Shown: one piece after another, positions 5,018-28,048 of the stretch
How positions within the stretch are numbered: the stretch's first letter is position 1
Layout of the letters: every line of letters starts with the position of its first letter
Source: Candidatus Bathyarchaeota archaeon
GTDB taxonomy: Archaea > Thermoproteota > Bathyarchaeia > Bathyarchaeales > DTEX01
Reading direction: 5' to 3'
Assembly (NCBI GenBank): GCA_963714275.1
Contig: CAVQNT010000003.1
Coordinates: 160,001-224,000, forward strand
Length of the DNA stretch: 64,000 nt
Notes under the pieces: generated by a model
What the model saw: the letters and a program-made list of their open reading frames with translations, nothing else
Database searches by the model: none
Told to the model about the DNA's origin: nothing
Program-made: the position numbers and the translations under genes

Positions 5018-8000
5018 GCTGCCATCGCCTTTTCAATATATTTCTTTTGATCGTCCTGCCGAAGGGCTCTCCAAATCAGGAACTGTTTACGAATTATGTC
5101 AAGTAACGCCTTGTTGGTAGTGGTCCAGATACTCTCCAATCCTTCAATTCTTTTTATTAAAATTTCAAAGCCATACCTGTCAGGCTGCTATTGGTCTACT
5201 AATGACGTTGAAGTCCTGGATCACTCCCGCGTCGAACGGCGACAACTGAAGCCTAGCACTCAGGACTTTTCTTTCGTCCTCTTGGGTCAGTTGCACTGGC
5301 TTCAAAAGCATGAATATTCCTGTTCTTTCAGTCGCAGAGGCTTCGAAAAACTCGCTGAGGAACCCTAGAACACCGATAGACTCGTCTGGTGTAGCGCTGA
5401 ATGGTAAACCTATACTCCAGAGGTCGCCTACAGGTTTGCTGCCAATTCTCCATTTTCTTAAAAGTGACGGCGTCACCATTTTTGAAGCCTTCGAAACAGG
5501 ATAGATCGAGGACAGCACAGTTGCTGCCATCATTATGCCCATCACGATGATGACGACTCCAGACGACACATTGGGTATCAAATCCTTTGGAAAAATGTGC
5601 AAGTTCGACAATAAAGATGTCACGCTAGCCCCAGTGAAGTAACCCAAGAAGCTTCCCAAGAAGGCAAGGGCCACACTTTCTGTTATAAAAATGGCTCCAA
5701 TATGGCGAGGTGACAGCCCAATTGTGCTCAACGTTCGAATCTCACGTGTTCTTTCAAAAACCGCGCTCAACATCATTGACAGCAGAGTAAGAGACGACAG
5801 AAACAAAGGAATAATCATGTTTTCTGCTCCGCTAAGCATATAGATGTCTCTTGTAGTTATTTGCTGTGCATTAGTTTCACCCTTTATTCCGTAAGACACA
5901 TCAAACTGCTGCAACGTAAGAACCATATCGAAGGCACGTTGTCCCAAATCACCCAATGTTAACGTCGTCGAGTTTGAACTGAGAGCGATTACATTGGGTT
6001 GAACATTGAAGTATTCTGTCGCAAAGTCGTAGGGAACTATGATTAATGAAGAAAGTCCTAGTGGAGAATACACACCTCCCAGACCAGATACTTGAGGGTC
6101 TGGAGGCAGAATTGCGTTTCTGTCCAAGTCTTTGGACAGGAGAGCGTTTCCTATATCTTCAAAAATAATACATCTCACGGTAACAGGAACCCCATAAATG
6201 TTAAGCTTAGTTCCATATGTGACGTTAATGCCTAAATCAATGCCCATTCTTTCAGCAAGCGTGTCCGTGATAATGATGGAATTTATCATCCCCGGTTCAA
6301 AGACGTCTCCTTGCCCAGGGACTCTTGCGCCCTCCAAAATTTTTGATTCTTCGAGCTGTCATTGCCAGCATACCTCTTACTGAAGAGGTAGTAGCGTTCC
6401 AAATTATGAACATGTTCTGCCCAGATGGATATATCCAAGCCCTAGGGTTTAATTGAAATTCAGATAATCCTTCCGAAGCAACATCCTTTATGGAAATCAG
6501 ATAGAGTTCTGATGTTGGATTGTATACGTTCGAAGCTGGTGGTATAGGTCTTGTTAGAAGCAGTCCTGTGTAAGTGGCGCTGCCTACTGATGATGTCCGC
6601 GGCTGGACCATAACTCCCATTGTTGTAAACAAAGTCATCGCTGAGACCGTTATAATGATTGTCGTTAAAGTCAATGCTGTCCGCATAGGTCTTTTCTTGA
6701 GGTTCTCAACTCCCATGGATAAAGCCGACATGATTAGACTTCCTCTTTCAATGTCAGATCGGTGAGAACCCAGAACTGATCGGCTTATTGCACTTATTGC
6801 CGTGTTAAACTCATCTAAGACTATGTAAAGCAACAGAAAAGAGAAAAGAATAACGGAGAGCCCGTCAATAAGCATCCAAACGTTTGAAGCGATTACATAA
6901 CCAGGATGAACTTGGCTAAGAGCTACGTTTGTTATAACGAAAAATACTATGATTGCTAACATCCTCTTTATTCCAGTTTCTCTGCCCAAGACCAGCTTTC
7001 CTAAGAAAACCACGAAGGCAGCGGAGAGGAAGAAGAAGAAAGTCGCCGTGTTTACGACATCGTATATTAACGCAAAGGACGAAACATAAGTGTTTGCTGC
7101 ATACAACCAGTAAGCGATGGAATACGAGTATAGTTTTCCGTTTTCACCGTTTTGGCGAGCTTCATCAGCCAACTGTTTTAAGTGATGCATCCCATCAAGA
7201 TACAGAACCATCTTAGCATTAGATGACATCTTTGACTCCAAGAAGCCGCCTCTTTGGTTCGCTAAATAATACATGTTTTCCACAGCATCAAAAATGGTTA
7301 GCACAGTGGTTTTTCTCTGAACTAGACTATACCCTTGTCCATCAGGGAACTTTTCAGAAGCGTTATTCAACACTGCAACCACTGTTCCTGATGATCTAAT
7401 GAGGATCTCCACATTCGTATCTGGTTGAGCGAAAACCATAGCTTCAGGTGTAAATTCCAACACGTCTCTCCAAACAAGGTAACTGTGAGAAACGAAGTTT
7501 AGGATATCAATACTTAGCGTTTGCGGACTTCCCATAGTCCACAGGTTTAGATAATCTATAAGCGCAATAGATGAAACATTAATAATAGGAACATAGCGGA
7601 ATCCATGCGCAGAATTATCAGAAAAACTTCTTGCCATTCTACCAGTACTCATTAGATATCCAACTCCCCCTGTTCCTGGAGTGGCTGTTGGAGGCTGCAG
7701 CTGATGACGCTGCACCAAAAAGAGTCCCTTGCCTTAATAACAGCGTACCAAAGGGGCCTGTGTCAGTGGCACATAAAACGTCCCCAGTTTCCGGGTCGAG
7801 AATATAGCCTTGAGCGTCAATGCCGCAACGAGGTCTAAGTCCTTTTATGACAACTTTGCCTTCTTCGTCTGGCTTTAGGACTACAGTGAACCCGATTCCT
7901 GGACTTAGGGATCCTGATGAAACGATTCCGCCTGAAGTTTGTACTGGTGCAACAGTGAATACTCCCGCAATCACTCCTAAGACAACTGCGCTTCTTGCGG

Positions 8001-14410: not shown

Positions 14411-14436
14411 AACATATAAAGGAGGTGAATGAAGAA

Positions 14437-15000
14437 ATGGACTCATTCTTTAATTTTGATGAATTATTTGAAGACTTTGGTAAGTTCAACAAACAATTTA
14501 TGGACAGAATTCAGAAAGAAATCGATGAAACTGAGAAAGCCATCAAAAAAAGCGAACTAAAAGGCAACTGGGATATTAAAAAAATTGATGAGCCGGGAGT
14601 AAAAGGATTCATAATTCAAGGAAAATTCTGGACAAACGAGCCGTTCGAAACGTTTGACCCCGTTGAACCACTTAGACCTAGAATCAGAAAACCGTTTCCA
14701 GAAAAACCACTAGAATTAAAAGCAGATGATTCTGGAGAAATCCGCGAGCCACTAACAGACCTATTTGAAGAAGACAATACCATAAGGATTTTTGCTGAAT
14801 TACCAGGGGAAGAAAAAGGCGATATAAAACTGGATTTCAAAAAAGACAAGGTTGAAATTAAGGGTAAGAAATTCAATAAGACTGTTACACTTTCAACAGA
14901 AAACATTGACAAAGAAAAAACGACTACAAAATACAAAAATGGCGTACTCGAAATCACTATACCAAAAAAAGGGCACGAACCTAAAATCCACAGACTGTAA
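14437..15000 (+). CDS. hsp20: Small heat-shock protein Hsp20
   Basis: REPLTDLFE, AELPGEEK and YKNGVLEITIPK; GGAGGTGA Shine-Dalgarno at 14421. Confidence 0.9.
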   Translation: MDSFFNFDELFEDFGKFNKQFMDRIQKEIDETEKAIKKSELKGNWDIKKIDEPGVKGFIIQGKFWTNEPFETFDPVEPLRPRIRKPFPEKPLELKADDSGEIREPLTDLFEEDNTIRIFAELPGEEKGDIKLDFKKDKVEIKGKKFNKTVTLSTENIDKEKTTTKYKNGVLEITIPKKGHEPKIHRL

Positions 15001-15047: not shown

Positions 15048-15078
15048 ATCACGTTTATATCGTGATGCGTGATATCAC
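15048..15078. repeat. ATCAC/GTGAT motif cluster including the palindrome GTGATATCAC
   Basis: Motifs at 15048, 15062, 15069 and 15074. Confidence 0.5.
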
Positions 15079-18122: not shown

Positions 18123-19037
18123 ATGTCATTCCGTCTTGGAGGAATGTCTTTGAAGATAATAGGATGCCCCGGTTCATTTGAATTGGCGGGCAAAATTAGT
18201 ATTTTAACAACTTGGCCGAGGTTTTTAATCGATACGAAAAGGTTTCCTGATGGAGAATTCTATTTTAGGTTCGAAGAAAATATTTCTGGGGAAGAACTGC
18301 TTGTTGTTCAGAGCTTGTTTCCGTCGCAAGATACTCATTTAGTTGAACTTTTTTTGATTCTTCAAACGGCAAGATACCTCAAAGCTAAATCAATCAATGT
18401 CTTCATTCCTTACTTGGCTTATAGTCGACAAGATGAACGATATCTGGACGGAGAATGCTTAAGCGCAGGTCTGATAGCTGAACTGCTGCAACACCTGGGG
18501 GCTGACTCCCTTTATACAATTGACGTGCACAACCAAAATGTTTTAAACATGTATAAAATTCCTGCTTATACCTTATCAGCGTCAGCGGAACTGGCAAAAT
18601 ACTTTGTTTCAAAAAACCTCAAGGATCCGTTTGTTGTTGCTCCTGACGATGAAGAGATGGCTTTGAAACGGGCTGAAACTGCTGCAAAAAGTATTGGCGC
18701 TGAATATGATTTTTTCGAAAAAAGCAGAGACCGTCACACCGGTGATATCATAACGCATTCAAAGAAGGTTAACGTAAAAGGTAGAGACGTAATAATAATC
18801 GACGACATCATAAGCACTGGTAAAACTTCGGCTAATGTAGCAAAAATACTTAAAAAGCAAGGAGCACGAAGAGTGTTCATCGGAGTCTCGCATGCGCTAC
18901 TTTTGGGGAACGCTTTGAAACTCTTAACTTCTTCAGGAGTAGATGAAATTGTTGGAACAGATAGCGTGGCCAATAGTTTTGCAAAGGTCTCCGTCGCACC
19001 AATATTAACTAAAGCTCTAAAAACATGTAATAAATAA
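18123..19037 (+). CDS. prs: Ribose-phosphate pyrophosphokinase
   Basis: RFPDGE, PYLAYSRQD and IIDDIISTGKT. Confidence 0.95.
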   Translation: MSFRLGGMSLKIIGCPGSFELAGKISILTTWPRFLIDTKRFPDGEFYFRFEENISGEELLVVQSLFPSQDTHLVELFLILQTARYLKAKSINVFIPYLAYSRQDERYLDGECLSAGLIAELLQHLGADSLYTIDVHNQNVLNMYKIPAYTLSASAELAKYFVSKNLKDPFVVAPDDEEMALKRAETAAKSIGAEYDFFEKSRDRHTGDIITHSKKVNVKGRDVIIIDDIISTGKTSANVAKILKKQGARRVFIGVSHALLLGNALKLLTSSGVDEIVGTDSVANSFAKVSVAPILTKALKTCNK

Positions 19038-19177
19038 AATTTTATATGTAAATATCTATAATCTTTTTTGTGAGATTAAGGATAGCTCACTAATTTTTAA
19101 CATTTTTTTAAAAAAATGTTAACTAAAGTTATATGGTTTGGTTGTGGAATAATATTTTCTTTTCAATTATACAATAT

Positions 19178-19453
19178 TTATATTTCTATTAACTTTTTTT
19201 GACCTATGCCAGTTAATACCCAAATATATGGTTTTTTACTGTTTCTTTTAATAATATTTTCGTTTTCCAATAAATGTAAATGATGCAGAATTGAGGAGTA
19301 GTGAATCCCAGTTTTTTCGTTAATTGCCTTTGCGGTACATTGGAGTATATCTAGGGTTGAGACTATTTTTGTTCTTGTCACAAGCCCCTTTTTTACATTC
19401 TTTGTTTTTATCAAAAAGGCTTTTGGATGATAATAATCTCTAATCATTTCCAT
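19178..19453 (-). CDS. Small winged-helix DNA-binding protein
   Basis: TAKAINEKTGIHYSSILHHLHLLENENII...PYIW. Confidence 0.7.
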   Translation of the reverse strand: MEMIRDYYHPKAFLIKTKNVKKGLVTRTKIVSTLDILQCTAKAINEKTGIHYSSILHHLHLLENENIIKRNSKKPYIWVLTGIGQKKLIEI

Positions 19454-19486
19454 TAGAATTATGTAGGGAAGTTGAATAAAAAATTT

Positions 19487-19798
19487 TTATTCTGTATGGA
19501 TTCTACAAAGAATGGTTGTGGACCATTTTTCTATCGTTCGCCCCATCGTCCTTTTGTAAGTATTTTGGGCGATCTCTTTTCTTTTATCTGCACAGTTTCG
19601 GCATCTTTCGTGTCTCATGTCAGATGGTCCATCACATTTTCCACAGTTGAGAAGTAACGTTTCCCCTAGCCCCTTCAAATCAGTCCAAGCATATTCTCTT
19701 TCGTCGAATTCGGGTTCAAAGTCTGGCCATAGATCATAAATATTGTTTTGTTTCATGGCTTCCTTTAAAGATGTAAAATAATGCTCAAATGAAGTCAT
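19487..19798 (-). CDS. Hypothetical protein with two CxxC pairs
   Basis: CGKC...CRNC; co-oriented in the GGGPS gene string. Confidence 0.6.
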   Translation of the reverse strand: MTSFEHYFTSLKEAMKQNNIYDLWPDFEPEFDEREYAWTDLKGLGETLLLNCGKCDGPSDMRHERCRNCADKRKEIAQNTYKRTMGRTIEKWSTTILCRIHTE

Positions 19799-19821
19799 GG
19801 TGTTTTGCCTCCTTTTTATTA

Positions 19822-20592
19822 TTATTTTCTATTGTTGACTCCTTCTTTTATACCTTCCATTATTTCAGTAATTTTATTTTTGATAGATTCTTTTGCTGTT
19901 TTTTCGAAAATGGTGCTAGTCACAATAATGTCTGCACCGGCCGAAACGATATCTCTAGTTTGTTCGCCTGTTCTAATTCCACCTCCTACAATTAACGGGA
20001 TACCGACAACTGTTTTTACCATACGTACCATTTCAGTTGGAACAGGCTTGCCTACACCTGACCCCGCTTCTAAATAAATGAAGCGCATACCAAGATATTT
20101 TGCTGCTAAAGAATGAGCGACTGAAAGTTCAGGTTTATTGTTTGGAATTGAAATGGCTTTTCCGATTACTGCAGCAGCTCCGCCTTCTCCAATTATGAGA
20201 TAGCCTAGCGGAATTACTTCTATCCCATATTTCATGACTAAAGGGGCAGCGAGTACTTGAACGCCCATTATAAAATATGGATCTAAAGAATTGAGAAGAG
20301 ACATAAACCATATAGCGTCCGCATGTTTGCTTATGCCTGTTAAATTGTTAGGAAAAAGAATGATTGGAATCTTTACACACTTTTTTATTGCTTTGACTGT
20401 TGAATCCAAATGACATGACGATGTTATTGTAGAGCCACCTATCATTATAGATGAGCTTCCACATGCTTCGCACTCTTCTGCTAAAAAGGATGCTTCATCT
20501 TGACCAATCTTTTCCGGATCTATAAGGGTCATGTGTATAGCACCATTTTGCTTAATTTTTTCTAAAATATACTTCTCGGTTTTTCCAATCAT
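19822..20592 (-). CDS. Geranylgeranylglyceryl phosphate synthase
   Basis: TLIDPEK, IMIGGS, YLEAGSG and VGGGIR. Confidence 0.92.
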   Translation of the reverse strand: MIGKTEKYILEKIKQNGAIHMTLIDPEKIGQDEASFLAEECEACGSSSIMIGGSTITSSCHLDSTVKAIKKCVKIPIILFPNNLTGISKHADAIWFMSLLNSLDPYFIMGVQVLAAPLVMKYGIEVIPLGYLIIGEGGAAAVIGKAISIPNNKPELSVAHSLAAKYLGMRFIYLEAGSGVGKPVPTEMVRMVKTVVGIPLIVGGGIRTGEQTRDIVSAGADIIVTSTIFEKTAKESIKNKITEIMEGIKEGVNNRK

Positions 20593-20615
20593 TCAATGTA
20601 CCCCTTGGACCTCGG

Positions 20616-20843
20616 TTATTTATAAAATTCGTCAATAAACTTACAATAGACATCAACTTCTTCAGATGAAGGCTTAACTGATATTTCTTTAATGAGACCA
20701 CATCCTCCACATTTTAATATGCCCTTTTCTTCTTTAGCGTTTATCTCAACTCTTAATGCTTCTCTTCCACATTTTGGGCATAGAAAAATTTTTGGTAGTC
20801 TTTTCTTAGGAATTCTGACGACCTTTCTTCTGCGTCTTCCCAT
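20616..20843 (-). CDS. elf1: Transcription elongation factor Elf1
   Basis: MGRRRRK...FLCPKCG...CGGCGL...VDVYCKFID. Confidence 0.88.
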
Positions 20844-20926
20844 GGTAATTCGCCGTAATAGTATGACTTTGTTTGACACTTAAAGATTTGTGATTTGAAC
20901 ATTTTATAAAATTTTGTTAATTTAAT

Positions 20927-21002
20927 ATCATAAGCAAATCACATTGCAGATCATATGTAACATCACGACTGTTATCACAAATTATATCACGCTAAGCATC
21001 AC
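20927..21002 (+). repeat. Phased ATCA(C/T) direct-repeat array with a 12-bp period
   Basis: ATCAY at 20938, 20950, 20962, 20974, 20986 and 20998, plus one at 20927. Confidence 0.8.
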
Positions 21003-21257
21003 AGTCGGGGTTGAAATCAAAAGTATTCAATACATAATTAAGTGTATATTAAATTCAATGCTCTTTTAATAAAAAATCAAAGACGTCCTTTAAGTAGAGT
21101 GGTATTATTAATTCATTATAATTATAATGTATAATTAAATATAATCCTTTATAAGATATTAAAAAATGTTTTGCCTAAAAAAAGTTAATGAAAATATTTA
21201 TATTATGCAAAAAAAGATGTGTATACAAAGTTGTATTCTTCTTAAGGGTCGGTTAAG

Positions 21258-21749
21258 ATGGTTAATCCCAATACAAAAGAAAGTATTAGAAAATGGTTAA
21301 TAGGCATCTCTACAGATCCAATTGCTAAATCACTTTTAGAAAATAGTCATTTAACCAAAATACAATTAGAAACATTCTTAATTGATGTTTTAGCTGGAAA
21401 AACAACTCGTAAATTTTTGACATATGAAAAAAAGGCTAATATGAGGTTAATAAAAACAGGTGTAAGTCGCGGAGCATTTAATCGAACTCTCTCTCAAGCC
21501 AGAAAAAACATCATAAAATCAATATATACTTTAATTTTGTTAGGGTATCTTGGTTTATTTGAAACTACTAATCTTGAGCCTTACGTAGAAATTGCTAACA
21601 GAATACAGACTTATACCGAAGCTTACAGGGAACTTCTAACATCAAAAAAAGCTTCAGATGAACATCTCCGTATCATAAATATGCTTCAAAACGAGATAGA
21701 GAAAACTTTACAGCAATTATCACGACCTAAAGAAATGTCAAGAAAGTGA
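21258..21749 (+). CDS. Tfx-like HTH DNA-binding protein
   Basis: SHLTKIQLE...GVSRGAFNRTLSQARKNIIKSIYTL resembles the Tfx HTH region. Confidence 0.6.
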   Translation: MVNPNTKESIRKWLIGISTDPIAKSLLENSHLTKIQLETFLIDVLAGKTTRKFLTYEKKANMRLIKTGVSRGAFNRTLSQARKNIIKSIYTLILLGYLGLFETTNLEPYVEIANRIQTYTEAYRELLTSKKASDEHLRIINMLQNEIEKTLQQLSRPKEMSRK

Positions 21750-21945
21750 CATCACATATCACAATTTTAATGTTACATAAAATTTTGTATGATGTGTTTT
21801 TTATGAAAATTATGACGTGATAATCACGCTTGTGAGTAATATTTGTTATATTGTGAGATGATTTTGTTTTTTTGTGATACGAAAACTTTATTAAAAATAT
21901 GTGATTTCTTTTAATACTAATGTGATATGTGATTTATGATGTCAC
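21746..21945. repeat. Dense GTGAY/RTCAC array in an intergenic region
   Basis: About 15 motif copies; pseudo-palindromes GTGACATCAC (21746) and ATGATGTCAC (21936); 7-bp tandem spacing at 21751/21758 and 21922/21929/21936. Confidence 0.75.
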
Positions 21946-21964
21946 AATGAATGGAGAAAAATGA

Positions 21965-22657
21965 ATGATTGATATCTTTGCAGCAATATACGTTTTTCTT
22001 TTCCTTTTCACATCATGCATGACCCTCTCTTATTATCTAAAAATTAAACAGGCTTCTAAAGAATACATGAAAGCAAAAAAAGCATTGGATGAGATAATAA
22101 TCAGTTTTAATAAGGAACTTCGAACTGAGGATGAAAAAATTCGAGACCTTGAACAAAAAAATAACTCAAAAATTGTGGAAGCGCTTGACGCTGTGACCCG
22201 TATTGAACCGAAAATAACAAATTTAGAAGATAGACTAAAGAAAATTGAAGAATCTGCAACAATAGTCAATAATCATAAAAAAAACACCAAAAAAATGATT
22301 AATAATACATTAAGCCAACAAACTGAACCTATAAAAGAAACTATCATGACTTCTGTGGCTACAAACGGTTATGAAACCAATGAAAAATTAGACGTTTCCC
22401 CAATTCCTTTAAGAAGAGAAAGCGCCCTTGCCTCGCTTACAGAAACTGAATTAAAAATATTAGAGCTATTAGCTCAGCAAGGCGAGAAAACAGCTGTTCA
22501 GATACGTAATGAAATAAAATTAACTAGAGAACATACGGCACGACTTATGAAAAAGCTGTATGTCAGTGATTATGTGGAACGACGAACGGATCGAACACCG
22601 TACGTTTATCGTCTGAAAAAGGAGATGGAGACCCTTTTGAACGCGAATGACTCTTAA
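21965..22657 (+). CDS. Membrane-anchored coiled-coil protein with a C-terminal winged-helix domain
   Basis: N-terminal TM helix (IFAAIYVFLFLFTSCMTLSYY), heptad-rich middle, LTETELKILELL...LTREHTARLMKKLYVSDYVER...PYVYRL. Confidence 0.8.
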   Translation: MIDIFAAIYVFLFLFTSCMTLSYYLKIKQASKEYMKAKKALDEIIISFNKELRTEDEKIRDLEQKNNSKIVEALDAVTRIEPKITNLEDRLKKIEESATIVNNHKKNTKKMINNTLSQQTEPIKETIMTSVATNGYETNEKLDVSPIPLRRESALASLTETELKILELLAQQGEKTAVQIRNEIKLTREHTARLMKKLYVSDYVERRTDRTPYVYRLKKEMETLLNANDS

Positions 22658-22666
22658 TTTAGGGAT

Positions 22667-23077
22667 TTAACGATTTTTTATGAAATTTCTTAATTCTTCA
22701 GATACAAGCCTGAAAAGAACTTTGTTTGAATTCTTTTCTTTTATTAGTATTCCCTTGTCAGATAATCTGGATAAGTATGTTGAAATAGTGCTTAAATCGA
22801 TTTGTTCTCCCGTTTCCTGATTATACGTTAATTGTGCTTCACTGGCAGAAAATTTTGTTAAAAGAAAATGTTTTTCGATTATGAATCTGACTTTATCAAT
22901 TTTTGAAAATCCTTCAGTTTTTTGAGGATTGTTCTCGAATGCCGGTATTCCTCCAAGTAGCTCAATCATGTCTAAAATTCGTAGAGCGCTTTTTCTAGTT
23001 ACATTTCCTTCAACGCTAACTTTATACCTATTTCCTGTTTCATCGAAAACTTCGACTCTCATTTTCTTAAGGGGCAT
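22667..23077 (-). CDS. Uncharacterised winged-helix protein beside the origin
   Basis: IDLSTISTYLSRLSDKGILIKEK...VLFRL wHTH; small beta-rich N-terminal domain. Confidence 0.75.
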   Translation of the reverse strand: MPLKKMRVEVFDETGNRYKVSVEGNVTRKSALRILDMIELLGGIPAFENNPQKTEGFSKIDKVRFIIEKHFLLTKFSASEAQLTYNQETGEQIDLSTISTYLSRLSDKGILIKEKNSNKVLFRLVSEELRNFIKNR

Positions 23078-23278
23078 AATTGATACTGCCTATTATTTTG
23101 TATTAGCGTTAAGTATTTACATTTTACAACCTATAAAGAATTCGGTTAATAAAAAAAGATAAAAAGCAAAAAAATGAAACGATTTTAAAATAAAGGGATT
23201 TTTAAGCATATTTGATTTAACACCATTAACAATAGATTCGTTTTTTAAAAAAGTGATTAAATAAAACTTAGTCTTATT

Positions 23279-23662
23279 TTCCACAGGAAAGGGAGGGGTA
23301 ACAAATTAACTTTCTAAAAGAAGAAAAAAATGACAGATTAATTAAAATTGGGCTAAAAAAAGAGAGTTTGATGCCCTAAAACATATTTTAACAGAATAGT
23401 AAATAAGAAAAAAAAATTATATTTTATTAATAAAACTGATTTTAATTCAATATAATATATTGTATTTTTAGTAATCCCTCACCCCTATGTTTCCTTTAGA
23501 ATGTTATAAAATTAAAATTTTAAAAAATATATTTATTATTTATTATTCATTTTTTGAAGAATATAAAATAATTTCTGTAGTGGAAATATAGGGGGCTGGA
23601 TTCTCTAAAAAATATATTAAGACTAGTTTATTTTTTTGTATAGTTCCCCTTATTTTCAGTTT
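23279..23662. other. Chromosomal replication origin (oriC) with ORB elements and an AT-rich unwinding element
   Basis: ORB+ TTCCACAGGAAAGGGAGGGGT at 23279-23299; ORB- TTCTAAAGGAAACATAGGGGT at 23481-23501; ORB+ TGTAGTGGAAATATAGGGGG at 23576-23595; degenerate ORB- at ~23645-23662; directly upstream of cdc6. Confidence 0.88.
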
Positions 23663-23693
23663 TACGAATTTTAGATTTCACTAAAAATTCCTA

Positions 23694-24953
23694 ATGAGGA
23701 TTGATATGATTCTTCAACAAAACGTGCTAGACGATGTATTCAATAAATTTTTAAAGGGTTCAGTCATTTTTAAAAAGAGAGAGGCACTTTGTCATGATTA
23801 TATTCCTGATTCTCTTCCACATAGAGAAGATCAAATACGATATTTGGGTGAAATGTTAGCTCCTGCACTCAAAGGTTCAATATGTTCTAACATTTTGATT
23901 TATGGAAAAACGGGAACAGGAAAAACAGCGGTTGTTAATTATGTTCTTAATAAGCTTAGAATAAAAGCTGATGAATTATGTTCAAACGTTAAAGTTAGTT
24001 TTATTAATTGTCGTTTGGTTGGCACAGAATATAGGATTTTTTCATATTTATGTTCCAAACTTGATACAGAAATTCCCTTTACCGGACTCGCTTTAGGCGA
24101 AGTATTTGATCGTTTCAAAAAATCATTAGATTCAAAAAAAGTTCTTCTTATCGTGGCCTTAGATGAAATTGATGCAATTATAAAGAATCGGGGGGACATA
24201 CTCCTTTATGAATTAACTCGAATAAATGAAGGACTAACAAATAGTAAAGTAACAATTCTCGGTATTTCTAATGATTTAAAATTCAAGGAATTATTGGATC
24301 CTAGAGTACTTAGTACATTAAGAGAAGAGGAATTAATTTTCCGACCTTACAATGCAGAAGAACTTCATGATATACTATTCGAACGTGCAAAGGTTGCTTT
24401 TCAGGAAACAGTGCTAGACAAAGGGGTAATTGATTTATGTTCCGCCCTTGCTGCTGCTGAGCATGGTGATGCTCGTCGAGCATTGGACCTTTTAAGAGTC
24501 GCAGGTGAGGTAGCTGAGAGAAGAGGAGACAAGTTCGTTAATGAAGGGCACGTTCGTGAAGCGCAAACAAGAATTGAGCATGATAGAATATTAGAAACCA
24601 TAAAAAGTTTACCTATACACTCACGAATTGTGCTTCTAAGCGTATTTCTTCTAAAAAATTCAAATGTTGACCACTCAATTACTGGAGATATTTATAACAT
24701 ATACTGTGAGATGTGTGACGAAACAGGGTATACGCCACTCACGCAAAGAAGGGTAAGTGGTTTAATCAGCGAACTTGACATTATGGGACTTTTGAATTCT
24801 AGAGTAATCAGTCTAGGTCGTTATGGAAGGACAAAGAAAATTAGCCTAGGGATTCCAAGCCGAATCATTAGGCAATGCTTCTTAGGAGATGACAGATTCA
24901 AAAAAATGATTGATTACTGTCCAAAATATTTAGTGAACCTTAAGAATAATTGA
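23694..24953 (+). CDS. cdc6: Orc1/Cdc6 replication initiator
   Basis: LPHREDQI, Walker A GKTGTGKT, LDEID, HGDARRALDLLR and C-terminal GRYGRTKKI. Confidence 0.97.
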   Translation: MRIDMILQQNVLDDVFNKFLKGSVIFKKREALCHDYIPDSLPHREDQIRYLGEMLAPALKGSICSNILIYGKTGTGKTAVVNYVLNKLRIKADELCSNVKVSFINCRLVGTEYRIFSYLCSKLDTEIPFTGLALGEVFDRFKKSLDSKKVLLIVALDEIDAIIKNRGDILLYELTRINEGLTNSKVTILGISNDLKFKELLDPRVLSTLREEELIFRPYNAEELHDILFERAKVAFQETVLDKGVIDLCSALAAAEHGDARRALDLLRVAGEVAERRGDKFVNEGHVREAQTRIEHDRILETIKSLPIHSRIVLLSVFLLKNSNVDHSITGDIYNIYCEMCDETGYTPLTQRRVSGLISELDIMGLLNSRVISLGRYGRTKKISLGIPSRIIRQCFLGDDRFKKMIDYCPKYLVNLKNN

Positions 24954-25085
24954 TTATTATAGACCGCTTTAAATATTTTATAAAAAAATGGTCATAATTA
25001 ATCAAATAATAAGTTGGTCATACAACTTTATATTTTCCATTGAACTATTATTCTATTTATAATATACCGTTTTTGAGGGAATCAT

Positions 25086-26066
25086 ATGGAGCTTCGTAAA
25101 ATTCAGAAAACAAGGGGTGGCACATTTTTCGTCACCCTTCCCAAAGAATGGGCTGTGAAAAACGGAATTAACAAAGGAACTGTTGTATCAACTTCTATAA
25201 CGTCTGATGGCCATCTGATCATTGATCCGCAATATAATTTGGAACCTGTCCCTCAAATTATTGTTTTGAAGCCCACTCCTTATCTAAGCCGTGAAATCAT
25301 TGGAAAATACCTGCTTGGATATGACATAATACGGGTTGAAGCCAAAGACAGGATCACAACGGAACAAAGAGAAGCCATCAAAGAAACGTCAAGCCGGTTA
25401 ATCGGTCTAGAGATTATTGAGGAAGACTACACTAAAATGGTGATGCAATGTCTTTTGGAACCATCAGCTCTTCCTCCTGAAAAGGTCCTTCGTCGTGAAC
25501 ACTTAATTACGTCCGGCATGTTTAACGATGCTTTAACTGCCCTAGTTGAAGGTGATGTACAACTTGCGAAAAACGTGATAGCTAGGGACAATGAAGTTGA
25601 CCGCCTTTACTTTTTATTAGTACGAATACTTCGAACAGTTATTCAAAATCCTGGATTAAGCGAAAAACTAGAAATTCCTCCTATAGATTGTCTGGACTAC
25701 CGTTTAACTGCAAGTTTAGTAGAGTCTGTAGGAGACCTTTCTTCGCAAATTGCTGATTATGCGACTCATTTTAGTGGAAAAAGATTAGACATAGAATATT
25801 CAAAACCTTTTACAAAACTCTACAAAATTATACACGAATCTTATAATGATGCGTTAACAGCATTTCTTTCTCGTAATATTTCAACGGCTGCATCAGTTCG
25901 GAATAGAAAGACTGACATCACAGAAATGCATCACCAAGCTGATTCCATATGTAATGCTTTACCGATGGACGTTGCACAAAACATAATCTCAGTGACTTCT
26001 CTCATCAATCAAATATATGATTACAGTGTAGACATATCCGATCTTACGACACCAAAGGGGTCGTAA
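25086..26066 (+). CDS. phoU: AbrB-PhoU phosphate uptake regulator
   Basis: RKIQKTRGGTFFVTLPKEW AbrB domain; RDNEVDRLY PhoU repeat. Confidence 0.9.
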   Translation: MELRKIQKTRGGTFFVTLPKEWAVKNGINKGTVVSTSITSDGHLIIDPQYNLEPVPQIIVLKPTPYLSREIIGKYLLGYDIIRVEAKDRITTEQREAIKETSSRLIGLEIIEEDYTKMVMQCLLEPSALPPEKVLRREHLITSGMFNDALTALVEGDVQLAKNVIARDNEVDRLYFLLVRILRTVIQNPGLSEKLEIPPIDCLDYRLTASLVESVGDLSSQIADYATHFSGKRLDIEYSKPFTKLYKIIHESYNDALTAFLSRNISTAASVRNRKTDITEMHHQADSICNALPMDVAQNIISVTSLINQIYDYSVDISDLTTPKGS

Positions 26067-26178
26067 CTTTGATTTGAAGAATTAAAGGCGTTTAATGTAT
26101 ATCACATGACCTCACAGTCATCTGTATCGATATGACGCTGTTAGGGTTTCTTGATCAAAAAGGACCATGAATCTTAAC

Positions 26179-26475
26179 CTAGAAGATTTCCTTTTCACCA
26201 ATTTTTCTGTATGTTTTTCCTCTGACTTTTACTGATTGAACGGTGTCTTCTTCGGGTTCTTTCTCAACCGTTTTGCGTTTTACGGTTTCTCCGCACTTGC
26301 CGTTGGATAGCAAGCGTCTTGTCAAGCATATTGGATAGTTGCAGTTTGTTGGATCGCATTGTTCTTCGCTCCATATGCACCACGCTGCCCTTCCTCTGAA
26401 TTGTAGAGCATTTTTTCCGCATCGAAATTTCGGGCAGTTTGGAGAACATAAATTAGGGGTTTGCATGTTCAGCAC
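26179..26475 (-). CDS. Small Cys-rich (8 Cys) hypothetical metal-binding protein
   Basis: CSPNCPKFRC...WCIWSEEQCDPTNCNYPIC...KCG. Confidence 0.65.
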   Translation of the reverse strand: MLNMQTPNLCSPNCPKFRCGKNALQFRGRAAWCIWSEEQCDPTNCNYPICLTRRLLSNGKCGETVKRKTVEKEPEEDTVQSVKVRGKTYRKIGEKEIF

Positions 26476-26681
26476 AACCTTGGTGGATAAAACAGTTTAC
26501 GAGGTTGCATTTTTCAACCATTGAGTTTGAATATTTATAGGTGGTTATAAACTTTTCTTGTGGTTCTTCCCTAAAACATTTGTGAACTCTTCAATCATAA
26601 AACGTTATTAAAAAAAAGAAAATATGTTATAATATTTTATAATAGTAACATGACATCGTTTTAACATATAAACGGTTCATA

Positions 26682-27716
26682 GTGAGTATCTTGGGAGTCA
26701 ACCTAACACCCATAATGTTAAAAAACGATATCCAATTACGGGACCTTACAGGAAAAAAACTTGCGATCGACGCAAACAATTTCATCTACCAATTCCTTTC
26801 CGTCATCAGAACGCGTGATACGACTCCATTAACTGGTCCGGATGGAACCGTGACATCACATTTAGCAGGTATTCTTTACCGCGTCACGCACTTAATTTCC
26901 GAATATAGCATGAGTTTCGTTTTCGTTTTTGACGGTCCCCCTCCAAAGCTCAAGCAAGAGGAAATTGAGAAGAGGCGTCAGCTTCGAGAAAAGGCAACCA
27001 GGGAATGGAAGGAAGCCTTGAGGATGGGAGATTATGATAAAGCTTTTTCTAAAGCAGTAATGATGAGCCGTTTAACTGGTCCTATGGTTCAGGACGCAAA
27101 GAAGCTCTTGACATTACTTGGTATTCCCCATGTTCAGGCGCCGTCCGAGGCAGAGTCACAGGCAGCCTACATGGCGATGAAAGGCGATGTCTGGGCGTCA
27201 AGCAGCAAGGATTATGATTCGCTGCTTTTTGGTACCCCTAGGCTTGTGAGGTATCTTACGATTTACGGTAAGGAGTATCTTCCTTCCAAGGGGGTTTCGA
27301 GACCCTTAAACCCCGAATTAATTGTTTTAGACGAATTTTTAACGAAACACGGCATATCACGTAACCAATTAGTCGACATGTCAATCCTAATCGGGACAGA
27401 TTTTAACAAGGGAGTAAAGGGTATCGGTCCGAAGATAGCGTTAAAGCTCATTAAGGAATACAACAGACTCGAAAATTTTCCTAACGACATTCGATCTAGG
27501 ATTGCTGACCATTATGAGGAAGTTAGGGCGATTTTCCTGAAGCCCGAAGTAACTTCCAATTATGATACAACGACTACTTCATTGAAAGAGAACGACATCT
27601 ATACGTTCCTGTGTGACGAGAAAGGGTTTTCGAGAATACGAGTTGAAAACGCCATCAACAGAATTAAAGAATCATTTGAAAATGTGGAACAGCTCAATTT
27701 AGGTAAATGGCTGTAA
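26682..27716 (+). CDS. fen: Flap endonuclease 1
   Basis: IDANNFIYQFL, APSEAESQA, DYDSLLFG, GTDFN and the C-terminal PIP box QLNLGKWL. Confidence 0.96.
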   Translation: MSILGVNLTPIMLKNDIQLRDLTGKKLAIDANNFIYQFLSVIRTRDTTPLTGPDGTVTSHLAGILYRVTHLISEYSMSFVFVFDGPPPKLKQEEIEKRRQLREKATREWKEALRMGDYDKAFSKAVMMSRLTGPMVQDAKKLLTLLGIPHVQAPSEAESQAAYMAMKGDVWASSSKDYDSLLFGTPRLVRYLTIYGKEYLPSKGVSRPLNPELIVLDEFLTKHGISRNQLVDMSILIGTDFNKGVKGIGPKIALKLIKEYNRLENFPNDIRSRIADHYEEVRAIFLKPEVTSNYDTTTTSLKENDIYTFLCDEKGFSRIRVENAINRIKESFENVEQLNLGKWL

Positions 27717-27757
27717 AATTCGTATTGAAATTTTGTATAAGTCTTAGCTTATCAGTA

Positions 27758-28048
27758 TTAAACAATGGTTAGTTTGCCGTATCTTCCCACGTTAAGTTGG
27801 ATTTCGCCTCGGAACGATTTTATGTAGCCATTTTCGATTTTGACAGTGTCACTTACGTTTACTTGCCCGATCTGTTCGTTCCATAGTACGAGCTTTATTG
27901 TTCCGCTGTCATCCTTAATGGTTGCTTCAGCCACTTTGTAGGTTTCACCGGTAAACTTGGAACTTACTTCTCGAGGTTCAGAAACTTCTATTACCTGTGC
28001 TTCTACATCTATCCTTCTTAAGCCGTCTCTTAACTCAGCGATTTTCAC
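27758..28048 (-). CDS. ssb: Single OB-fold ssDNA-binding protein
   Basis: DDSGTIKLVLW and ENGYIKSFRGEIQLNVGRYG. Confidence 0.88.
   Translation of the reverse strand: MKIAELRDGLRRIDVEAQVIEVSEPREVSSKFTGETYKVAEATIKDDSGTIKLVLWNEQIGQVNVSDTVKIENGYIKSFRGEIQLNVGRYGKLTIV

Follow-up and report, generated by a model that had tools for sequence, protein, structure and literature searches.

Our analysis addressed a stretch of 64,000 nucleotides (hereafter the window) from a Candidatus Bathyarchaeota archaeon, corresponding to positions 160001-224000 of contig C3 of genome G000 (2.64 Mb, 10 contigs). Based on open reading frame (ORF) calls and Pfam searches, three small ORFs, here referred to as P1, P2 and P3, sit between elf1 and a predicted replication origin (oriC) that bears origin recognition box (ORB) elements and lies next to the orc1/cdc6 initiator gene. 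An earlier sequence-only reading had placed three uncharacterised genes at this position and had interpreted them, together with clusters of the pentamer ATCAC/GTGAT (GTGAY), as a candidate module for origin tethering and segregation. The placement was confirmed (ORFs 21258-21749 and 21965-22657 on the plus strand, 22667-23077 on the minus strand), and an Rfam scan of 20500-24000 returned no match at E 1. Elf1, the left neighbour, adjoins P1 in most related loci and is regarded as lying outside the module. The features of the locus are listed below by their position in the window.

20616-20843, minus strand: elf1, transcription elongation factor Elf1 homologue (Pfam PF05129, Zn_ribbon_Elf1, E 9.6e-19)
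20927-21002: array 1, five ATCAC and two ATCAT in a register of about 12 bp, 255-330 bp upstream of P1
21221-21238: P1-promoter palindrome GTATACA-AAGT-TGTATTC, 20 bp ahead of the start codon of P1 and proposed as its operator
21258-21749, plus strand: P1, 163 amino acids (aa), conserved family without a Pfam model, putative helix-turn-helix (HTH) around VSRGAFNRTLSQARKN
21746-21945: array 2, the P1-P2 spacer, an ATCAC/GTGAT cluster
21965-22657, plus strand: P2, 230 aa, N-terminal transmembrane helix, coiled coil, variable linker and C-terminal MarR/TrmB-type winged helix
22667-23077, minus strand: P3, 136 aa, conserved N-terminal domain of about 45 aa and putative C-terminal BlaI/ArsR-type winged helix
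23078-23693: predicted oriC, 616-bp AT-rich spacer with ORB-like elements at 23278-23301 (plus), 23479-23502 (minus) and 23574-23598 (plus)
23694-24953, plus strand: orc1/cdc6 initiator, Orc1-1 type orthologue (Pfam Cdc6_lid 2.3e-26, Cdc6_C 2.1e-25)
15048-15078: third, smaller cluster ATCAC-N11-GTGAT-GC-GTGATATCAC, outside the P1-P3 interval

P2 appears to combine a membrane anchor with a DNA-binding domain. Residues 158-209 score 26.6 bits against PF01047 (MarR), above the gathering cut-off of 24.6, and P2 reaches 25.5 bits against PF01978 (TrmB), just under the cut-off of 25.6. For the middle part, a profile search of the PDB returned coiled-coil chains, and the winged helix occupies the last ~75 residues, after transmembrane helix, coiled coil and linker. 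All 26 homologues examined carry one N-terminal hydrophobic 19-mer (start residue 1-6, Kyte-Doolittle value of at least 1.85) with only 0-5 residues ahead of it, and their mean lysine/arginine content is 0.04 before the helix and 3.4 in the 12 residues after it. No second hydrophobic segment was found in these 26 sequences, the next-best Kyte-Doolittle value being at most 1.21. Since there is a single N-terminal helix with positive charge on its C-terminal side only, the topology is predicted to be that of an N-out, C-in signal anchor without an ectodomain. The transmembrane, coiled-coil and winged-helix architecture that the sequence-only reading had described for P2 thus held. Invariant residues of the winged helix follow the pattern REH..RL.K.L in the alignment, and the recognition helix REHTxRLxKxL is kept from Bathyarchaeia to Nitrosopumilaceae, like the GTGAT motif. 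Specifically, Nitrosopumilaceae P2 proteins retain the membrane helix and the linker, have a short coiled coil, and carry REHTxRLMK in their winged helix. P2 occurs in 107 genomes of the class sample, which comprises 151 genomes, related ones not being independent, and in which lineage contrasts rest on few independent losses; among relatives of the same order it is found in 26 of 41. A search with P2 gave 244 matches, which where named are hypothetical proteins or ArsR/MarR-type regulators. By score P2 can be assigned to the MarR/TrmB winged-helix class, yet it is not a classical MarR protein.

The arrays surrounding P1 and P2 are the most prominent motif clusters of this genome. Array 1 has ATCAC at 20938, 20962, 20974, 20986 and 20998, with ATCAT at 20950 completing a 12-bp register; Tandem Repeats Finder did not report this array, whose units are alike only in their cores. 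Array 2 comprises eight ATCAC/GTGAT within 21751-21933, among them an exact inverted pair ATCACATATCAC / GTGATATGTGAT and the palindrome GTGATAATCAC at 21817. At its P1 end GTGACATCAC-AT-ATCAC overlaps the P1 stop codon, and at its P2 end the start of P2 is preceded, at a distance of 21-91 bp, by four GTGAT and one GTCAC; GC content is 0.23 over the 200 bases that begin at window position 21751. Both intergenic regions, 20927-21002 and 21746-21945, had been described as packed with this motif, and they do hold the densest 80-bp and 200-bp clusters of the 2.64-Mb genome (5 sites in 80 bp and 8 in 200 bp, each rank 1), against a genome-wide density of 1.33 per kb. The second-ranked 200-bp cluster, with 6 sites, is likewise at the locus, and 16 sites lie within 1.1 kb there compared with 8 at the next best place in the genome. 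The arrays had also been said to abut oriC; they are near the origin but do not adjoin it, lying 1.3 kb and 2.3 kb from the first ORB. The 10-kb bin containing the locus holds 31 sites and ranks first of 259 (mean 13.3, standard deviation 4.3), while the two bins flanking it rank 25 and 113, so that the proposed comparison of motif density with distance from oriC yielded a local peak but no gradient. Furthermore, the TGTGAT count over the window is not raised (39 observed, 32.7 expected, 17 of 100 shuffles reaching 39), and the array signal is one of clustering, not of abundance.

The same arrangement was found in relatives. Across 25 loci, ATCAC/GTGAT is the top enriched 5-mer of the P1-P2 spacer (190 observed, 12.3 expected, 15-fold, present in 25/25 loci), its density there being 24.9 per kb versus 1.64 per kb in the rest of the loci, and an unbiased k-mer comparison of these loci returned TGTGAT as the top 6-mer (29-fold). 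The 130-bp P1-P2 spacer of Nitrosopumilaceae has 32.7 versus 1.9 sites per kb and shows TGTGA and GTGAT among its top k-mers (51 loci; the 29 of 80 loci shorter than 12 kb were left out of gene-order and k-mer counts). Relatives likewise have an array upstream of P1, most loci show the first GTGAY palindrome running over the P1 stop codon, and the P2-side sites lie at a median of 67 bp before the P2 start. Site polarity is biased in opposite directions (62 versus 31 at the P1 side, 58 versus 104 at the P2 side) and spacing is variable, with 5, 7, 12 bp and more. The 12-bp register is confined to this genus, and the spacer of GC-rich relatives is not AT-rich. Of 24 closely spaced GTGAT pairs in the complete genome G040, 9 are concentrated in 1.4 kb around P1 and P2, the others being scattered.

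Two further clusters were seen in genome G000. The one at 15048-15078 of the window holds the genome's only GTGATATCAC and has a counterpart in the same-genus genome G002 (locus L013, 1052-1082). It follows an ORF at 14425-15000 that appears Hsp20-like by eye, lies 220 bp ahead of a 656-aa ORF, and may be an additional site for the same putative binder. The other, with four GTGAT in 50 bp on contig C6 (G000:C6:74010-74060; L165, ~2011-2060), was set aside as unrelated, being located beside an integrase-like gene. It lies between an ORF whose C-terminus resembles a tyrosine recombinase by eye and a 176-aa ORF; it may be part of an integrated element, and a connection with the module is improbable.

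P1 was detected in 126 of 151 class genomes, with a single match in all except one. Beyond the class, 111 of 251 phylum genomes contain relatives of P1, Nitrosopumilaceae being one such family; the mean column identity of an alignment of 25 sequences is 64%. A search matched 4733 proteins, and the source names among the 120 matches listed were all 'hypothetical'. The sequence-only reading had called P1 Tfx-like, which was not borne out: no Pfam family matched at E 0.1, NCBIfam and PDB profile searches gave nothing usable, and a genome-wide search with PF04545 (Sigma70_r4) at E 10 hit 10 places, none of them in P1. When 25 members were scanned, no Pfam family was common to more than 2 of 25, DUF134 matching 2/25. 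The sole lead to Sigma70_r4 was an Atlas feature match of 0.80 to a cluster with 14% Sigma70_r4 members. An exhaustive profile search collected 324 clusters at E 0.001, and of ten distant or longer family members scanned in Pfam nine were without any family. One protein, P0370 (362 aa), consists of the P1 N-terminus and an unrelated transmembrane/coiled-coil tail; a P1-P2 fusion was ruled out in this case, the hhalign probability against P2 being 1.9%. P1 is a small protein with a probable HTH around VSRGAFNRTLSQARKN; the putative HTH segment reads RTLxQAR in Bathyarchaeia and RQVxQSR in Nitrosopumilaceae. A palindrome ATACA-N3-6-TGTAT (at most one mismatch) lies upstream of P1 in 41/50 loci (L052 and L055 were left out of this 50-locus comparison of arrays and palindromes) and is found regardless of the presence of P2 or P3. 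In the 51 Nitrosopumilaceae loci, GTATAC and TATACA head the k-mer ranking of the GGGPS-P1 spacer. The 18-bp palindrome GTATACA-N4-TGTATnC, just ahead of the P1 start, accompanies P1 in every lineage and is most simply proposed as P1's own operator.

The origin was called with the ORB consensus, using the ORB-like search pattern GGAAA-N1-5-RGGG; a stricter pattern matched one of the three elements. The spacer upstream of cdc6 contains the genome's only triple of this pattern within 400 bp, of 258 matches genome-wide. The three ORB-like elements (plus, minus, plus) surround AT-rich DNA (GC 0.26) directly upstream of cdc6, and the same TTTCCAnnGGAAAnnnnGGGGT elements recur in the P3-cdc6 spacers of relatives. 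Cumulative GC skew on the 286-kb contig, with a local minimum ~13 kb from oriC, is too weak to locate or confirm this predicted origin. In five related spacers (L015-L019) a conserved TTTCAC(A) about 6 nt after GGGGT extends the ORB elements; the side of the spacer nearest P3 carries a conserved TTCACAAGTTATAA and the side nearest cdc6 a conserved TTTTTTGTA, both likely promoters. The Nitrosopumilaceae P3-cdc6 spacers (L061-L140) are 102-fold enriched in GTTAAC, with 244 copies in 51 spacers, beside the ORBs. TTAACA and GTTAAC are enriched in Bathyarchaeia origin spacers too, and GTTAAC is possibly a further origin motif.

P3 is coupled to this type of origin. Counting as Orc1-1 orthologs those matches with E 1e-120 or better, and weaker Cdc6 matches as paralogues, 99 of 151 class genomes have Orc1-1 and 87 have P3. 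Every P3 genome has Orc1-1 (87/87), whilst P3 is missing from all 52 genomes that lack Orc1-1 and from 12 that have it. When both are on the same contig, 68/80 pairs lie within 2.2 kb; this count and the corresponding one for P1 and Orc1-1 derive from manually entered coordinates, in which single transcription slips are possible. P3 and cdc6 are usually divergent across the ORBs, P3 being transcribed away from oriC/cdc6. A winged helix had been claimed for P3 as well; the winged-helix matches obtained were sub-threshold, the score against Penicillinase_R being 18 bits and the curated cut-off 22.6. Penicillinase_R matches occur in 25/26 P3 members at E ≤1, all of them weak (best 1.5e-5). The best PDB profile match has E 0.018, and the Atlas structure neighbours of P3, whose model has a predicted local distance difference test score (pLDDT) of 0.64, are BlaI/MecI/CopY clusters. 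The winged helix of BlaI is N-terminal, the putative one of P3 C-terminal. A search with P3, capped at 8000 candidates, gave at least 5234 matches, the names among the 120 listed being hypothetical proteins, ArsR-type regulators and one unrelated enzyme.

The synteny of the trio with cdc6, suggested earlier as a check, proved deep. The order elf1/P1/P2/P3/oriC/cdc6 is kept by the genes present in 26/26 order-level loci; cdc6 is seen in 23 of these, and the remaining 3 end at contig edges. P1 and Orc1-1 are both present in 91 class genomes, on the same contig in 80, and within 7 kb of each other in 78 of these 80 (median 3.5 kb). In Nitrosopumilaceae all 51 loci of at least 12 kb show cdc6(-) P3(+) P2(-) P1(-) GGGPS(+), which is the order of the window.

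Lineages that lack parts of this arrangement show which elements occur together. The maximum number of GTGAY per 100 bp, counted within 900 bp of P1, is at the median 6 where P2 is present (minimum 3, 37 loci) and 1 where it is not (13 loci). The outliers without P2 are G086 (5 per 100 bp) and L156 (4), the latter having a diverged P2-like gene. At family level the following patterns were found.

Families f14, f23, f26 and f27: P1 and P3 (convergent), ORBs and cdc6; P2 not found; no arrays
Family f24 (33 genomes): P1 in 28, P2 in 30, P3 in 0, Orc1-1 ortholog in 1; arrays present
Family f20: P3 and cdc6 only; no arrays

In the complete f24 genome G167, P1-P2 and the arrays are 345 kb from its only cdc6. 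The P1-P2 spacer of this genome (L056, 8660-9416) is ~760 bp long, with a very AT-rich core of ~280 bp between GTGAY clusters; it is origin-like in look, and no ORB-like element was seen in it by eye. In f34 genomes cdc6 lies on the opposite side of P1 and still within ~5 kb of P3. Seven order-level loci have a NurA/HerA-like pair between P3 and P2, which moves P2 to 4-5 kb from oriC. The pair (L035 6518-9095 in G040, L022, L023, L024, L029, L031, L036) is co-directional with P3; the NurA-like protein matches PF09376 at E 9.4e-4, below the cut-off, the HerA-like protein matches DUF87 at E 9.8e-13, and neither had a tblastn match in G000 at E 1e-3. G086, a single contig at 86% completeness, keeps P1, the palindrome and GTGAY clusters, and P2 and P3 were not found in it (L058, 7700-9400); there was no Cdc6_C match at E 1e-5. 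Its arrays are followed by an HTH gene with an apparent CBS domain (by eye). G090 (82% complete, 3% contamination) has P1, P3 and the Orc1-1 ortholog twice each, on contigs C1 and C11, and P2 was not found; the duplication likely reflects a bin in which two strains are mixed. The block was judged not to derive from a plasmid or virus, P1 and P3 each being single-match in all but one genome and the proteins being class-wide.

The trio is embedded in a wider syntenic block (window 18123-28048) with the same order in many relatives. Its left part contains PRPP synthase, a 91-aa winged-helix gene, a 103-aa ORF, GGGPS and elf1, its right part a PhoU-like gene, a 98-aa ORF, FEN1 and a 96-aa OB-fold gene.

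We tentatively favour the reading that the interval consists of two ancient units neighbouring oriC and not of one segregation machine, P2 being a membrane-anchored autoregulator and P3 an origin/cdc6 factor, and we would give it a little less than an even chance. From the anatomy, conservation and co-occurrence described above we infer the pairing of binders with sites, the repression and the membrane location. The most economical assignment would couple P1 with the palindrome, P2 with the GTGAY arrays, and P3 with Orc1-1 and oriC. Unit A would comprise P1 and P2 with two cis-elements, the palindrome and the (T)GTGAY arrays. The first ~20 residues of P2 would span the membrane with nothing outside, leaving the coiled coil, a flexible linker and the winged helix in the cytoplasm. 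The (T)GTGAY clusters over the P1 stop codon, at the P2 core promoter and ~0.3 kb upstream of P1 are present where P2 is, and would most simply be the sites of P2. Coiled-coil oligomers of P2 with loosely tethered winged helices might fill sites of variable spacing and opposite polarity, bridge the site clusters and repress the P1-P2 genes. Since P2 would be embedded in the membrane, its occupancy of the sites would keep at the membrane a stretch of DNA that lies 1.3-2.3 kb from the ORBs. Unit B would comprise P3, oriC and Orc1-1, with P3 divergent from cdc6 across the ORBs; most probably P3 either regulates the expression of cdc6 or assists at the Orc1-1 origin as an accessory factor. The interpretation given by the sequence-only reading is supported in part. 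Of the ParA-independent membrane link that it proposed, P2-based tethering is possible in this genome; tethering is not, however, a conserved, origin-dependent function of the trio, and the idea of a single machine is at odds with the phyletic patterns.

Several observations weigh against the two-unit reading. G086, with P1 and GTGAY clusters and no P2 found, is easier to reconcile with P1 as the binder. Only about six families supply the loci that lack P2, so that the contrast amounts to a few independent losses, and the arrays could have been lost with P2 merely as elements of the P2 promoter, whoever the binder. The winged helix of P3 is putatively assigned from sub-threshold matches. Furthermore, the wider block from PRPP synthase, GGGPS and elf1 to the PhoU-like gene and FEN1 is equally syntenic, GGGPS adjacency persisting even in Nitrosopumilaceae, and the neighbourhood is therefore weak evidence of function. 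A caution against deriving function from origin adjacency comes from the haloarchaeal genes oapABC, now arvABC, which encode a small GTPase, a DUF2073 and a DUF2072 protein: according to the available part of that work, OapA was linked to replication by its location at the origin and later shown to drive vesicle formation, in which the three genes act (PMC10927574). As described there, oapABC resembles the trio in being a small conserved gene set defined by its position at the main origin and orc1; the proteins are unrelated.

Comparison with better described systems helps to delimit what P2 might do. RacA of Bacillus subtilis, with its ram sites, binds DNA, contains a coiled coil and attaches the origin-proximal part of the chromosome to the cell envelope; it is soluble, is anchored via DivIVA and acts in sporulation, and its sites are dispersed over the origin-proximal region. 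MarR-type repressors usually have sites overlapping their own promoter, classical members being soluble dimers on one or two palindromes. P2 shares with MarR autoregulators a score above the MarR gathering cut-off and putative sites overlapping its own promoter. It differs from them by its membrane helix, a coiled coil of ~100 residues and the variable linker, and its putative sites, 8-13 pentamers with variable spacing and both polarities, are unlike MarR operators. The MarR-type soluble homodimer with N- and C-terminal helices around the winged helix is likewise not the predicted form of P2. In the AspA-ParBA system of pNOB8 an adaptor is encoded beside its sites and a ParA-type ATPase alongside is needed. 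SegAB partition also uses a site-specific DNA-binding adaptor beside its sites and needs such an ATPase alongside (PMC7617429, as far as available). For ParABS, SegAB or AspA-ParBA-type systems the window offers no ParA, as had been noted earlier; PF13614 and PF01656 match only C6:306835-307434 and C2:446085-446309, on other contigs of the genome.

RicO of Staphylococcus aureus has an N-terminal DNA-binding domain and a C-terminal amphipathic helix, and acts on nine ricS sites across ~700 kb around oriC, its function having been shown by ChIP-seq (chromatin immunoprecipitation sequencing) and genetics (bioRxiv 10.64898/2026.03.06.710092). According to the available part of that report, RicO, like P2 as predicted, is a single protein with a DNA-binding domain, a coiled coil and an element that binds the membrane, and it recognises a specific motif near the origin, bridging DNA and membrane without a dedicated ParA for anchoring. 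P2, known here from its sequence only, differs in its reverse domain order, its transmembrane helix and its putative sites within ~1.1 kb at its own gene. No sequence relationship between P2 and RicO was found, although no dedicated test of one was made. A dispersal of sites over origin-proximal hundreds of kb, as for RacA or RicO, was not observed, only the locus bin being an outlier. Among archaeal proteins, ArnR and ArnR1 of Sulfolobus acidocaldarius are membrane-bound one-component transcription factors that are oligomeric and bind promoter boxes at the membrane; ArnR is built from an N-terminal winged helix, sensing and HAMP-like domains, and two transmembrane helices at the C-terminus (PMC12107092). 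As far as the accessible text describes it, ArnR resembles P2 as an archaeal winged-helix protein integral to the membrane and targets archaellum and pili promoters, whereas P2 is predicted to have one N-terminal helix, a coiled coil, a C-terminal winged helix and neither a sensing domain nor an ectodomain; the putative target of P2 is its own locus, and P2 is not linked to motility genes. With ToxR/CadC-type regulators P2 shares, by prediction, a cytoplasmic DNA-binding domain and a membrane anchor. The extracytoplasmic or membrane-embedded sensor of ToxR, CadC and ArnR appears to be absent from it.

The trio and arrays might alternatively form a ParA-independent system of origin tethering and segregation, in which P2 fixes centromere-like repeats to the membrane and positions or separates sister origins. 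We consider this quite unlikely. In plasmid partition cassettes, too, the array is placed upstream of the gene that encodes its binding protein; here the arrays have no equal elsewhere in the genome and lie 1.3-2.3 kb from the ORBs, the linkage to cdc6 is deep and ParA is absent from the window. The architecture of P2 also mirrors bacterial origin anchors such as RicO, as far as that report describes it, and with no ectodomain for sensing, anchoring looks like its purpose. However, the sites are restricted to ~1.1 kb without an origin-proximal gradient, a force-generating partner was not identified, and the NurA/HerA-like pair distances P2 4-5 kb from oriC in seven order-level loci. Moreover, f24 keeps P1, P2 and arrays although 32 of its 33 genomes lack an Orc1-1 ortholog, and in G167 they are 345 kb away from the sole cdc6; f14, f23, f26 and f27 keep ORB origin, cdc6 and P3 with P2 and arrays not found. 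We regard as similarly doubtful the proposal that Bathyarchaeia and Nitrosopumilaceae share an origin-organising module of a type not known from archaea, with P3 as a dedicated Orc1-1 partner at the ORB origin and P2 clamping a compact, centromere-like GTGAY array next to oriC to the membrane. If true, such a module would give ParA-less archaea a means to position or separate new origins, and lineages losing P2 or moving the array would have changed their segregation mode. That P1 rather than P2 binds the GTGAY arrays and regulates the downstream gene, normally P2, with P2 having other targets or none, would account for the GTGAY palindrome over the P1 stop codon in most loci, for the presence of P1 in every locus with arrays, and for G086, where P1 and arrays precede an unrelated HTH-CBS gene and P2 was not found in the genome. 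Yet 11/13 loci lacking P2 have P1 without any array, including upstream of P1, the HTH segment of P1 diverges between classes while the motif remains TGTGAT, and the separate conserved palindrome already explains the P1 operator; we rate the probability of this assignment as low.

A purely passive explanation would see three ordinary transcription factors without an origin role, hitch-hiking in an origin-flanking block that is slow to rearrange. The syntenic block from PRPP synthase to FEN1, in which GGGPS, a lipid-synthesis gene, is linked as tightly as P1, is what it would lead one to expect; P1-P2 function evidently persists far from any cdc6, and OapA provides a precedent (PMC10927574, in its available part). 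Inertia alone would hardly produce the co-occurrence of P3 and Orc1-1 (87/87 versus 0/52) or the position of P3 across the ORBs in 68/80 pairs, and linkage outlasts local rearrangement, cdc6 in f34 lying beyond P1 and yet ~5 kb from P3. We hold this explanation to be unlikely. Finally, the direct repeats of array 1 in their 12-bp register and the AT-rich spacer (GC 0.23 in the 200 bases from window position 21751) recall the iterons of a second origin, or the relic of an integrated plasmid replication or partition cassette, as does the ~760-bp spacer of f24 with its very AT-rich ~280-bp core flanked by GTGAY clusters. This we judge highly improbable: P1 and P2 span two classes, P1 has a single match in all but one of 126 genomes and P2 is one gene per genome save for split matches and three genomes with two. 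Moreover, no replication or integrase gene was found in the interval, the spacer is not AT-rich in GC-rich relatives and the 12-bp register is limited to this genus.

For archaea other than Sulfolobus, the control of origin firing and the separation of chromosomes are little understood, and a 2024 review, in the part available, names only SegAB for archaea and states that its mechanism is not understood (PMC7617429). No description of the P1, P2 or P3 genes was found in the searchable literature, which did not cover subscription journals and supplements. Our analysis defines three unnamed protein families and two conserved DNA motifs that are kept beside oriC in two classes. These classes include cultivable ammonia oxidisers, the Nitrosopumilaceae, in which the hypotheses are directly testable. 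The couplings of P3 with Orc1-1 and of P2 with the arrays are clean and the trio is deeply conserved. We propose a membrane-bound autoregulatory transcription factor with an operator array, together with a new origin-coupled protein that has a putative winged helix. Should P2 indeed keep DNA flanking the origin at the membrane, archaea would have in it their first counterpart of the bacterial origin anchors. If it is no tether, P2, as a candidate transcription factor bound to the membrane without a sensor domain, would still represent a new architecture for this type of regulator.

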